Part shown: one piece after another, positions 26,636 through 54,769 of the stretch
Position numbering within the stretch: the stretch's first letter is position 1
Layout of the letters: every line of letters starts with the position of its first letter
From: an uncultured Candidatus Saccharibacteria bacterium
GTDB lineage: Bacteria; Patescibacteriota; Minisyncoccia; Portnoybacterales; UBA2143
NCBI GenBank assembly: GCA_964594155.1
Contig: CAZQLH010000001.1
Coordinates: 1,448 to 65,447 of the forward strand
DNA: 64,000 nt
Direction of reading: 5' to 3'
Notes under the pieces: model-generated
What the model saw: only the letters and a program-made list of their open reading frames with translations
Told to the model about the DNA's origin: nothing
Databases searched by the model: none
Translations under genes and position numbers: made by a program

Positions 26636-27948
26636 GTAAAGCATTTAAAACAAATTTTAGTTTTTACGGGATAGTTATTTTTCTGTTTTTTTTAATTATC
26701 CCGTTTTTTATTTGGGCAGCTGGCATTGATGACCTGCGGCAGGATTTAGAAAATCAAATTAAACAAAAACAGCAAGAAATTAATCAACACCAGCAAAACA
26801 TTAAAGAAACGCAGCAAAAAAGCAAAACACTTAATAATGAAATCCAGATTTTAGAAAGCCAAATTAATAAAATTAGATTAGAAGTAAGGCAAATTGATTT
26901 AACTATTCAAAAAAGCAGTTTAAATATTCAGGAAATAGACGATCAAATAAAAGAGTTAGAAGAAAGAGTTGATGAAAAAAAAGATCTTTTAGCTGAATAT
27001 ATCCGAGCAGTGGCCTATTATGACCAAGAAACCATTTTAGAGATTATTTTAAAAAATGATAAGTTTTCTGATTTTTTTAGTCAAATTAGCGCTTTAGAAA
27101 GCGTTCAGGAAGAAATTCAAAGTATTTTAGAGGTTATTCATGGATTGAAAGATAAATTAACAGAAGAAAAAAATGAATTAGAAGATGAACAAGAAGAGCA
27201 GAATAGATTAAGGTCTCTTCAATTAGTTCAGCAAAGATCTGTTGAAAATGTTCAATGGCAAAAAGAGGATTTATTAGATAGAACCAAAGGAAAAGAACAA
27301 AGTTATCAGCAAATGATTCAGGGAGCTGAAAAAGATATTGCCTATATCAAAGAACAGCTTTCTTTATTAGAGAAATATAATTTGACCTTGGAAGAAGCTG
27401 TACAGCATGCTATTTTTGCCGCTTCTAAAACCGGTATTAGACCAGCTTATTTATTAGGGGTTTTAGAAGCTGAATCTAGATTAGGCCTTAATGTTGGCAC
27501 AGGAAATTGGAAAAAAGATATGTACGACTGTTATAGGAGTTTGGGATATATTACAAGAGCAACAAAAGAAAAAAACGCTTTTATCCAAATTTGTCAGGAA
27601 TTAGGATTAAATCCAGACCTTCAGCCGGTTTCAGCTGAGCCATGGTATGGCTGCGGCGGAGCTATGGGCGTAGCTCAGTTTATGCCCACTACTTGGATGG
27701 CTTATAAAGACCAAGTATCTGCTTTAACTGGCAATAATCCGCCTAATCCCTGGACTCACCGCGATGCTTTTATGGCAGCTTCTATTAAATTGTCAAATGG
27801 AGGCGCTAACCAGAGAAGCGAGATAGGGGAACGAACCGCTTATGCTAAATATTTGGGCGGCAGTCGTTACAGCCGCTGGATTTATCATAAAGTAACTGAT
27901 TACGTGATTAGTTTGGCTAATAAATTCCAACAGCAGTATTTTGAATGA
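26632..27948 (+). CDS. membrane-anchored coiled-coil protein with C-terminal lytic transglycosylase (SLT)-like domain
   Basis: N-terminal TM, ~230-aa coiled coil, C-terminal LEAESRLG..GVAQFMPTTW. Confidence 0.6.
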   Translation: MSKAFKTNFSFYGIVIFLFFLIIPFFIWAAGIDDLRQDLENQIKQKQQEINQHQQNIKETQQKSKTLNNEIQILESQINKIRLEVRQIDLTIQKSSLNIQEIDDQIKELEERVDEKKDLLAEYIRAVAYYDQETILEIILKNDKFSDFFSQISALESVQEEIQSILEVIHGLKDKLTEEKNELEDEQEEQNRLRSLQLVQQRSVENVQWQKEDLLDRTKGKEQSYQQMIQGAEKDIAYIKEQLSLLEKYNLTLEEAVQHAIFAASKTGIRPAYLLGVLEAESRLGLNVGTGNWKKDMYDCYRSLGYITRATKEKNAFIQICQELGLNPDLQPVSAEPWYGCGGAMGVAQFMPTTWMAYKDQVSALTGNNPPNPWTHRDAFMAASIKLSNGGANQRSEIGERTAYAKYLGGSRYSRWIYHKVTDYVISLANKFQQQYFE

Positions 27949-27955
27949 CTAGCTA

Positions 27956-27984
27956 TTGACAAGGATTTTGGTTTATGATATTAT
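27956..27984 (+). promoter_or_regulatory. near-consensus sigma-70 promoter P1 (TTGACA-17-TATTAT)
   Basis: Read directly; no CDS downstream on + strand. Confidence 0.5.
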
Positions 27985-27990
27985 AACGGT

Positions 27991-28108
27991 AATGGCAGAT
28001 GGGTTTCTTCATCTTCCACCTCCTTTCTATATAGCGGTGCTGAATCGGGTCAGCGCCGCGACACAAAAAAACGAGCCGCGGATAAAAAAATCCCCGGCTC
28101 TTTTTATT
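27991..28108 (+). ncRNA. candidate small structured RNA A (unknown class)
   Basis: Downstream of P1. Hairpin gcggugcuga-aucggg-ucagcgccgc; 3' hairpin gagccg..cggcuc followed by a U-run. Confidence 0.3.
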
Positions 28109-28115
28109 AAAACCC

Positions 28116-28144
28116 TTGACAAATTATAATGTGTATGATATAAT
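28116..28144 (+). promoter_or_regulatory. perfect-consensus sigma-70 promoter P2 (TTGACA-17-TATAAT with TG extended -10)
   Basis: ttgacaaattataatgtgtatgatataat. Confidence 0.55.
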
Positions 28145-28150
28145 ACAGGC

Positions 28151-28386
28151 AGTTAATTAATAAGCGGGAGCGTGAGAATTCTGACCCTTTGGGGTTCCAA
28201 TGCCCTCCTATTGGAACGGGTTTTATGCCTAAAGGATTCTCACTCTTCTGCTTGTTAGTTGTATTAACAGCAGAGGCATTTCTTTCTATCTTTAATTGGG
28301 TCTAACTCAATTAGTAGTTTTAAGAAATGTTGATTATTAAAATTATAATATACATAAAAGCCCCTTTTGGGGCTTTTATGTTTTTA
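28151..28386 (+). ncRNA. candidate structured RNA B (~235 nt, unknown class; 6S-like possibility)
   Basis: Multiple nested stems (gugagaau/auucucac; uuccaau/auuggaa; cugcuuguua/uaacagcag). Ends at the intrinsic terminator. Confidence 0.3.
28357..28386. terminator. bidirectional intrinsic terminator
   Basis: aaaagcccc-tttt-ggggctttt with flanking T/A runs. Lies downstream of the minus-strand gene at 28416..29045. Confidence 0.7.
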
Positions 28387-28415
28387 ATAATATAATTAAT
28401 AAATAAAGAACTATG

Positions 28416-29045
28416 TTACCAGGCAACTAATGCGCTGTATTGTTCAAGATTCTTTAGTTGGCTTGGCGTTAATTGCAGAGAAGCGTCTATAGCTTCTTTA
28501 ATTAAATCTTCTGAAAAGGAAACCTCTTCGTTAACTTCTAAAGGCCTTGAGCCGATTTTATCTTTAAGATAGTCCTCAATGTAGATTTTATGTTCATTAG
28601 TTAATTCTTGAGGATTATCTTTAAGATGGTTTTTAAGAGCCCGTCGAGCCAAATGAGTTACTCCTTCTCCTAAGTTTGCTTTTTCTATAATTGCGCCGCC
28701 TTCTTTTCTGGATTCTGGTATGATTTCCTGAATAGTAATTTCTTTACTGTCATCTTGTTGGCTGTCTTCAGTTAATCCAGTTAAGCCTTCAATATCAGCA
28801 ATTTGTTCTTCTTGGTTTAAATCTTCATCTAGAATAAGCGTTGCTTCTTTTCCTTTTTGATTAGCGTATAGATAAATGCCGCCAGCTAGAATTAGAAGAG
28901 CAATAATTGGAAGAATGACAGAACTGCCGTATTTATTGATCCATCCTTTGATTTTTGCGCTCCAATTCTTTTTATTGTCTAATCCGAATTGCGGACCAGA
29001 AATTGGTTGAGAAGGTTTTGGGTTTCCTGGATTTTGATTATTCAT
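28416..29045 (-). CDS. hypothetical membrane-anchored protein
   Basis: ORF with one N-terminal TM and an acidic C-terminal region. Confidence 0.5.
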   Translation of the reverse strand: MNNQNPGNPKPSQPISGPQFGLDNKKNWSAKIKGWINKYGSSVILPIIALLILAGGIYLYANQKGKEATLILDEDLNQEEQIADIEGLTGLTEDSQQDDSKEITIQEIIPESRKEGGAIIEKANLGEGVTHLARRALKNHLKDNPQELTNEHKIYIEDYLKDKIGSRPLEVNEEVSFSEDLIKEAIDASLQLTPSQLKNLEQYSALVAW

Positions 29046-34144: not shown

Positions 34145-34309
34145 AAGAAATATTATATCATATAAAAATATCTCTAACAATATCCTTGATATAGCATAAA
34201 TATTATGATATAGTAGTGGAAATAGAATAAATAAAAAATTGACTAAACTGATTAATAAAGGTATGCTTATTTTAGTTCTTTAATGAATTTAACTAAAAGG
34301 AGGGATAAT

Positions 34310-34594
34310 ATGAATCGAGAAATTGAAGCAGATATTCAGGAAGTGGATTTGACTGAATCAGTAAAATATCTTTATAGGATAACTACTCAATTACTGGATG
34401 CGGACAACTTAACTGTTTTACAAAAAGCTAATGTTGAATCAATTAAAACAATCTTTGGGCTTGTTTTAAACACAGTAGTATACCATGCCGCTCTGGAAGA
34501 GATTTGCCGTAAGATATTTGCAGACGCAAAAACAGACGAAGAACGTTTGCGCGCAATAGACAAGTTCTTTGCTGATTTAAAAGACCAAATATAG
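34310..34594 (+). CDS. hypothetical protein (94 aa)
   Basis: AAAGGAGGG RBS then ATG 34310. Confidence 0.55.
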   Translation: MNREIEADIQEVDLTESVKYLYRITTQLLDADNLTVLQKANVESIKTIFGLVLNTVVYHAALEEICRKIFADAKTDEERLRAIDKFFADLKDQI

Positions 34595-34688: not shown

Positions 34689-34922
34689 ATGATAAAAACT
34701 TGTTTTGAAAAATTTAATAAAAAATTAGACTCTAGAAATAATGTTATTTACGTTTTTATTGATGCGTCTAACTTATGGGAAGCGCAAAAGGCAAAGGGAA
34801 GATTTTTAGATTATGAAAAGACCTTAGAATTAAGGACTGGCGGGGATGGATATTCTGATATATTAAAAATAGATGAGATTTGGGGGAAGGAACTAAGATA
34901 TAGGAAGGAAAAAAATAAATAA
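34689..34922 (+). CDS. hypothetical protein (77 aa)
   Basis: ORF only. Confidence 0.4.
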   Translation: MIKTCFEKFNKKLDSRNNVIYVFIDASNLWEAQKAKGRFLDYEKTLELRTGGDGYSDILKIDEIWGKELRYRKEKNK

Positions 34923-35067
34923 AAACCACCCTCCGCAAGGAAGGTGGCTCTTGGATGTAATACCCTAACGGTTCTATGCCAGAACCGATAGACATTCTAA
35001 GTATATATAATTCGGAAACCATTGTCAAGATTTGTTTTTTATCCACAAGCAAAAAGGTATTAAATCA

Positions 35068-36561: not shown

Positions 36562-36598
36562 CATTGAAATTTAAATAATCATTTGTTATAATTACCAT

Positions 36599-54682: not shown

Positions 54683-54769
54683 GGAAGGATGGCTGAGTGG
54701 CCGAAGGCGCTTGCTTGGAGAGCAAGTGTGTCAGCAATGGCACCGTGGGTTCGAATCCCACTCCTTCCG
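54683..54769 (+). tRNA. tRNA-Ser (anticodon GGA), long variable arm, CCA not encoded
   Basis: Acceptor GGAAGGA/TCCTTCC; anticodon stem CTTGC/GCAAG with loop TTGGAGA; T-arm GTGGGTTCGAATCCCAC. 87 nt. Confidence 0.85.

Follow-up and report, generated by a model that had tools for sequence, protein, structure and literature searches.

A modular structured RNA family with a conserved C-rich loop, predicted in a lineage of uncultivated Patescibacteria

The UCCC small RNAs (sRNAs) of Firmicutes and Actinobacteria, which include RsaE/RoxS, other Rsa RNAs, RNAIII hairpins and 6C, are stand-alone genes with their own promoter and terminator. In those systems a C-rich loop base-pairs to Shine-Dalgarno (SD) sequences and blocks initiation without Hfq (PMC2790875; PMC6486639). 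The cia-dependent csRNAs of streptococci are short RNAs with a very strong promoter, in which a 5' stem-loop is followed by an unpaired SD-complementary stretch with a CAU nearby, a further stem-loop and a terminator (PMC3091779). Here we analyse two adjacent predicted genes for non-coding RNAs (ncRNAs), transcripts A and B, in a stretch of 64,000 nucleotides (the window; G+C content 33%) from an uncultivated Parcubacteria/Portnoybacteria-like member of the Patescibacteria. The Patescibacteria, or candidate phyla radiation (CPR), have tiny genomes and are almost all uncultivated, and no regulatory RNA described for them was found in the literature searched. Our prediction from the sequence, made with high confidence, is that B is a real gene for a structured ncRNA. 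Neither an Rfam family nor the literature searched describes B, and we class it as a new family within the bacterial small structured RNAs, unusual in its four-way junction scaffold, its modularity and its competing helices.

Both genes lie within a 467-nt gap between a + strand gene for 438 aa, whose stop is at 27948, and a convergent - strand gene for 209 aa that stops at 28416. The same arrangement is repeated on 15 independent metagenome contigs, which rules out an assembly artefact, and there the gap was left empty by gene callers. An earlier account of the locus, made without database searches and below called the sequence-only reading, stated that no + strand coding sequence follows; no open reading frame (ORF) of at least 50 aa was found after either promoter. 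For comparison we used 80 loci from species-representative genomes, each surrounding an orthologue of the 438-aa gene, 25 metagenome loci collected with a B1-specific pattern, and four closer relatives reached via proteins. Loci of relatives are numbered with the prefix L.

Like the UCCC sRNAs, B has its own promoter and terminator, and its first module, B1, has a hairpin with a covarying stem, in whose loop a C-rich motif is conserved and left unpaired. B1 (28156..28264, + strand, about 105 nt), defined by covariance model (CM) R1 and by covariation, folds as a four-way junction. Its closing helix P1 has 23 bp (28158-28182 / 28233-28257) and encloses a short hairpin P2 (28185-28193), in which insertions of up to about 70 nt are tolerated (L011, L014), an arm P3 of 7-9 bp (28194-28217) with a C-rich apical loop, and P4 (28218-28230), which has the form GGGC-loop-GCCC. 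The invariant CCCTCC of the P3 apical loop (CCCUCC in the RNA) is found at 28203..28208, and the family consensus AUCCCUCCUUA contains UCCC. CCUCC occurs in 18 of 19 sequences, and the P3 stem covaries around the invariant loop. B1 differs from the UCCC sRNAs in having a single C-rich loop set on a four-way junction with a 23-bp helix, and in being joined to a second domain that brings a competing helix. It resembles them neither in sequence nor by CM, and Rfam gave no match to RsaE or any other described UCCC member.

The second module, B2 (about 28249-28331, + strand), has three helices. P5 is a hairpin supported by covariation (28249-28258 / 28264-28272). In the core of the module (28275..28331) helix P6 (28277-28284 / 28322-28329) encloses a CU-rich internal loop and P7 (28293-28301 / 28305-28313). 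Nucleotides 28249-28257 serve both in the 5' strand of P5 and, in the lower half of helix P1, as the 3' strand, and the two helices are therefore mutually exclusive. For one shared nucleotide the P1 pair is GC in 13 sequences, AU in four and GU in two; at P5, 17 sequences have CG and seven have UA. Judged by these substitutions, both pairings appear to be under selection.

The structure of the two transcripts was evaluated against dinucleotide shuffles. Region B (28151-28390) has a folding energy of -94 kcal/mol with z = -9.2, and region A (27991-28108) one of -45.4 kcal/mol with z = -5.1, so that the sequence downstream of the promoters is as structured as had been claimed. In a MAFFT alignment of 19 B1 sequences 96.5% of the cells are paired, and 17 of 36 pairs have changes on both sides. 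No shuffle out of 500 matched the observed values, and sliding the partners lowered the pairing to about 32-55%. When 31 distinct sequences were aligned to the model, the paired cells rose to 97.4% and the pairs changed on both sides to 21 of 36; for B2 the corresponding values are 93% and 12 of 26. Seven pairs of helix P1 are invariant while adjacent pairs covary, the sequence of upper P1 being GUGAGAAUCC/GGAUUCUCAC. CM R1 scores 112 bits on the + strand of the window and 39 bits on the - strand (about 110 and about 40 bits across the family), and G-U pairs are numerous; the + strand is therefore the functional strand. Throughout B, substitutions track base-pairing rather than codons. The check for conservation and covariation in relatives, which the sequence-only reading had proposed, thus came out in favour of B.

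The two promoters are near-consensus sigma-70 promoters, as first described. Promoter P1 (27956..27984, + strand) consists of TTGACA (27956-27961), a 17-nt spacer, TG (27976-27977) and TATTAT (27979-27984), and matches the consensus at 11 of 12 positions; its -35 box, TG and -10 box are kept in L005. Promoter P2 (28116..28144, + strand) consists of TTGACA (28116-28121), a 17-nt spacer, TG (28136-28137) and TATAAT (28139-28144), matches at 12 of 12 positions, and is preceded by AAAACCC. The core common to both, TATGATAT(T/A)AT, is visible in the sequence. They are the top two + strand matches within the 12 kb from 22 to 34 kb, and in the 64 kb only 14 matches of at least 11/12 occur on both strands, P1 and P2 among them. 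Taken overall, promoter-like sites show no enrichment relative to shuffles (46 sites against 40.7 expected), and the case for these promoters therefore relies on the quality of the match and on conservation in relatives. A B promoter is present in every relative having upstream sequence, as AAACCCTTGACAAAT, a 17-nt spacer and TG-TATnnT, ahead of either B1 or B2. In most relatives the -10 box ends 6-12 nt before the start of B1, and hence helix P1 starts essentially at the 5' end of the RNA. The supposition that promoters of this strength normally drive stable RNAs did not hold, since comparably strong promoters elsewhere in the window sit before ordinary SD-led or leaderless mRNAs.

Transcript B ends at a bidirectional intrinsic terminator (stem 28352-28381, T-run to 28386), which it shares with the - strand 209-aa gene, 30 nt from the stop codon of the latter, and which is kept in relatives as CATAAAAGCCCC...GGGGCTTTTATG. 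The sequence-only reading had let both transcripts end there, and this is right for B (28352-28386). Transcript A stops at an intrinsic terminator of its own (28067-28108 in all; stem 28067-28083 / 28090-28105, U-run to 28108, + strand), the pairing of which is maintained in L005 via compensatory changes. A (about 115 nt) and B (about 235 nt) are therefore separate units with no common terminator.

By nhmmer, about 20 relatives at species level conserve region B, which is present in 31 distinct sequences from related Parcubacteria/Portnoybacteria-like genomes. B1 and the pair of the 209-aa gene and RNase J are convergent in every case, even where another gene is inserted between B1 and the 438-aa gene, and the gene downstream of B is convergent in all of the 40+ loci. 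The modules also occur singly: B1 alone, followed by a terminator, in L006, L009 and L022, and B2 alone behind its own promoter in L013 and L018. In L019, L024, L027, L030 and L033 the locus is missing and the bidirectional terminator stands alone in a gap of about 90 nt, the flanking genes being kept. B1 was not found by CM in about 50 loci with a flanking-protein identity of at most 52%, and neither BLAST nor CM found a second copy of A or B in the window. A phage origin was rejected, the B1 pattern having no match in viral contigs. On these sequence comparisons the B family is confined to a clade, modular, quick to change in composition, and dispensable at this locus.

Between promoter and B1, several relatives (L009, L011, L014, L016, L028, L029, L032, L102) carry a further module X, which would be transcribed together with B1 and is variable, often GC-rich, 86-260 nt long and closed by a stem of the form 5'-GAUGGUGAAUC...GAUUCACCAUC-CUUUCU-3'. 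Examples are L009:4927-5186, L028:4882-5129 and L102 (reverse strand, about 142 nt upstream of B1). No Rfam match was obtained for X. The X module of L102 holds GGAAGGAGGGAGG, a sequence with complementarity to the P3 loop of B1. With X, one more hairpin behind B2 and an additional hairpin module downstream, the unit reaches about 400-550 nt in relatives. This modular growth at a variable spot is like that of large modular structured ncRNAs such as OLE, GOLLD, ROOL and raiA, with which we compared it through Rfam; B differs from them in that none of their CMs matches it, and in that the version in the window is short and split into two transcripts.

Transcript A (27991..28108, + strand; ends inferred) is lineage-specific. 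Its 5' hairpin of 10 bp (27993..28018), probably a remnant of the X closing stem, is followed by a GC-rich second hairpin of 10 bp (28034..28059). In L005, a relative of 84% identity, the pairing of the hairpins is preserved by compensatory changes, such as a change from G-C to A-U in the second. Also identical in L005 is the 19-nt run TTCATCTTCCACCTCCTTT (28008..28026), which holds a CAU that lies within the stem, and CCUCCUUU, which is anti-SD-like and unpaired; within this run only CCUCCUUUCU... is unpaired. The linker between hairpins 27993-28018 and 28034-28059, CCUCCUUUCUAUAUA (28019-28033), is predicted to be unpaired. An anti-SD stretch unpaired between two stem-loops is the csRNA-type trait, and in its predicted fold A has it. 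With the csRNAs A further shares its shortness, very strong promoter, 5' stem-loop, nearby CAU, further stem-loop and terminator. It differs from them in that it is not homologous, has a plain sigma-70 promoter (TTGACA-17-TG-TATTAT), keeps the CAU inside a stem, comes from an unrelated organism and is found in two genomes only. Homology to the csRNA family was rejected, no csRNA model being among the weak Rfam matches described below.

The sequence-only reading had pointed to an identity of A with the 3' end of 16S rRNA. The stretch in question, CACCTCCTTTCT, is present at 28017-28028; CACCUCCUUUCU (28017-28028) was likened to a 16S 3' end, the organism's own 16S lies outside the window, and the SDs found here (AAAGGAGGUG) are consistent with that anti-SD. 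At the matching position the X modules of relatives read differently, for example GCCAUUGUCUUUA in L011, and the 16S-like identity is therefore specific to the window and L005. A homologue of A is recognisable by nhmmer in L005 alone; L110 (83%) and L111 (77%) have B, and at the position of A they carry unrelated sequence or a terminator only. Of the novel sRNA pair that had been suggested, B thus stands as a novel sRNA by conservation and covariation, and the idea of a pair does not, B being clade-wide and A limited to the window and L005. The 5' hairpin of A and the CU-rich stretch after it can be aligned with both strands of the stem that closes X in relatives. From this alignment A is best read as a collapsed X module with a newly gained terminator, after which the second promoter would serve B.

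The best explanation of the locus, to which we give slightly less than even confidence, is that of two independent + strand ncRNA genes acting in trans through C-rich anti-SD-like elements. The pairing mechanism itself is put forward tentatively, by analogy. The exposed pyrimidine-rich elements (the B1 loop, the B2 internal loop and the A linker) may pair with purine-rich ribosome-binding sites, and pairing with a few SD-led mRNAs would block their translation initiation. The long 5'-terminal helices could stabilise the RNAs, and the competition between helices P1 and P5 might give B two conformations, or allow refolding after processing. A would expose the 16S-3'-end-like CCUCCUUUCU between its two hairpins. 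Unpaired UCCC or C-rich loops are the working parts of Rsa sRNAs and RNAIII, where they pair with SDs (PMC2790875), and C-rich loops are so described for 6C RNA (PMC6486639); in csRNAs the anti-SD stretch between stem-loops is a working part (PMC3091779). Approximately five of the 72 window genes have a GGAGG SD, and a C-rich seed would therefore be selective for a small gene set. In the window, an ORF of 94-103 aa at 34283/34310..34594 (+ strand), with the SD AAAAGGAGGGAUAAUAUG and no Pfam match, has the only start region with extended complementarity to the B1 loop consensus.

Several observations weigh against an SD-pairing role. No conserved complementarity to the P3 loop was found at the starts of the L25, 438-aa, 209-aa, RNase J and aldolase genes, and the sole good loop match in the window, at 34310 on the + strand (AAGGAGGGAU), is one in 72 genes and not significant. 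For A there is a single informative relative, L005; the 19-nt identical run is marginal (shuffle P = 0.04 at 70% overall identity), and the CAU sits within a predicted stem. The absence of B from several close relatives implies that any role is accessory. Finally, a 23-bp helix with seven invariant pairs and a junction exceeds the needs of a base-pairing sRNA, and a protein-bound RNA fits equally well.

The last point leads to the strongest of the alternatives, which we nevertheless regard as unlikely: B, and perhaps A, as the RNA part of a ribonucleoprotein (RNP) or as a decoy, in which a protein recognises the invariant upper P1, the junction and the elements resembling the 16S 3' end. A factor or nuclease that normally binds the 16S anti-SD tail could, for example, be sequestered or guided by the RNA. 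The invariance of the seven P1 pairs beside covarying neighbours suggests sequence-specific recognition, a four-way junction with a long helix is more like protein-bound RNAs than minimal base-pairing sRNAs, and anti-SD-like sequence occurs in two separate modules. However, the locus has no linked gene that is a candidate partner, its neighbours being the lytic-transglycosylase-like gene, the 209-aa gene without Pfam domain, RNase J and, in some relatives, MFS or IS481 genes; and the RNA is missing from close relatives that retain all the flanking genes.

Whichever applies, B is a covariation-supported, strongly promoted RNA family in a poorly explored phylum and in a genome with few SD-led genes. 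If its loop does target SD-led mRNAs, it would offer a simple point of entry to the post-transcriptional control of CPR bacteria, and if B binds a protein instead, it would define a new RNP. Either way the alignment and CM are ready for annotating these genomes. The narrow and patchy distribution limits the general importance of the family.

A related and rather doubtful proposal is that B1-B2, with X where present, is a new modular, bistable, CPR-specific RNA class that mimics the 16S 3' tail on a four-way-junction scaffold. Such an RNA would act on the translation apparatus or on a factor recognising the anti-SD, by serving as decoy or sponge either of SD-led mRNAs or of a protein or nuclease, and the competition between P1 and P5 could serve as a built-in switch or as processing-dependent refolding.

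It is improbable that B1 is a riboswitch-like sensor of a ligand or signal, in which the competition of P1 with P5 would control the conformation and activity of B2. Like riboswitch-controlled and bistable ncRNAs, B has two mutually exclusive helices that share one strand, each with independent covariation support, and alternative pairings of this kind are expected of a riboswitch; aptamers also typically have a junction-type architecture. However, the 23-bp P1, far longer than a typical aptamer P1, forms first in transcription and should need no ligand. There is neither a regulated ORF nor a controlled terminator, P5 having no following U-run, and B is not the same-strand 5' leader of a gene, the downstream gene being convergent. 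B1 and B2 each occur alone in some genomes, and no riboswitch family or aptamer in Rfam matched.

That B is a highly diverged form of a universal stable RNA, missed by the Rfam models, is very unlikely. The idea draws on the strong promoters, the high degree of structure, the 5'/3' closing helix and the scarcity of Patescibacteria in the seed alignments. The Infernal/Rfam scan proposed in the sequence-only reading was run with 4227 families and assigned no known family: the window gave nothing at the gathering score, and region 27900-28450 gave 36 weak matches at E <= 10, all noise with no credible E-value. In 17 relatives only tRNAs and noise were found at the gathering score, and in the relatives with long X modules no family matched at E <= 0.05. 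ARAGORN made a single call in the window, a tRNA-Ser at 54683, and no transfer-messenger RNA (tmRNA). The tRNA-like domain and tag frame of tmRNA were thus found by neither program, and bacterial signal recognition particle (SRP) RNA, including its domain IV motifs, had no CM match in the window or in relatives. RNase P RNA had no CM match, and the transcripts (115 and 235 nt) are too short for it. The failure of the sequence-only reading to recognise these three RNAs in A or B was therefore correct. Its alternative of a 6S-like RNA was not borne out. Like 6S RNA, B is a highly structured, abundant-looking ncRNA whose 5' and 3' ends are paired in a long closing helix, but B1 has no central bubble or terminal stem, and the four-way junction followed by a separate domain does not form a rod. 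RF00013 and its clan gave no CM match. The consensus fold is incompatible with the rods of both 6S and SRP RNA, and the module content varies among close relatives, several of which (L019, L024, L027, L030 and L033) lack the whole locus.

Equally slight is the probability that the locus is non-functional, consisting of chance promoter hexamers in AT-rich DNA together with what is left of mobile or palindromic insertions within a gap that is a hot spot for them. The lack of promoter-site enrichment, the insertions in the gap and the restriction of A to two genomes are in line with it. For B it fails, as 31 distinct B sequences keep the promoter, four plus three covarying helices, the invariant loop and the terminator; for A only, this reading is possible.

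Least probable of all are small proteins, namely a - strand 19-aa ORF behind a perfect SD and/or a + strand 26-aa hydrophobic peptide of the type I toxin kind, although the reverse complement of 28008-28026 offers a textbook SD (AAAGGAGGTGgaagATG), a 6-nt spacer and ATG, much like the real gene start at about 1009, and the + strand ORF from the ATG at 28225, in the P4 loop, is hydrophobic: the - strand frame is shifted and of other length in L005 and has a terminator hairpin and U-run just upstream, which makes a gene there unlikely, and 1-nt indels interrupt the + strand frame in nine of 19 sequences, with its ATG replaced by GTG or lost in some relatives and the frame truncated in B1-only loci. 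A type I toxin-antitoxin system was accordingly rejected, no small hydrophobic ORF being conserved.

The product of the 438-aa gene is lytic-transglycosylase-like, and homologues bearing that name number hundreds. Its called ATG (26632) overlaps the L25 stop and lies 1 nt past AAGGAGG, a spacing too short for an SD to work; the mechanical ORF call may have missed the true start, or translation may be coupled to L25. No Pfam domain was found in the 209-aa protein, whose convergent gene is followed by RNase J.

In relatives the gap is filled by differing palindromic repeats resembling repetitive extragenic palindromic (REP) sequences or miniature inverted-repeat transposable elements (MITEs), for example AAGGGACAGTCCCT... 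and AAGGAACGTC...GACGTTCCTT. They were located at L079:4779-4850, L015:4761-4810, L020:4809-4930, L110:3835-3900 and L025:4815-4940. Inserted genes are a major facilitator superfamily (MFS) transporter in L014 and L017 and an IS481-type transposase in L022. By sequence the convergent gap is an insertion hot spot for repeats and for IS481 transposase or MFS genes. In L015 (4901-5190) an additional consensus promoter precedes a small membrane ORF of about 50 aa that has a perfect SD, AAAGGAGG, and a terminator to itself, and this unit is inserted immediately upstream of the B promoter.

Many genes, such as those at 36564 and 38534 (+ strand) and 35028 (- strand), and genes in loci L005-L034, have a -10-like box about 6-7 nt before the ATG, which suggests that leaderless or SD-less initiation may be widespread in this lineage. 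At about 35028..34920 on the - strand lies a TTGACA-17-TATACT promoter with neither SD nor ORF behind it; what follows instead is a 5' hairpin, together with a strong terminator (CCACCUUCCUUGCGGAGGGUGG plus U-run). A z of -4.7 was obtained for the 96-nt fold, and the region is possibly another small RNA gene.

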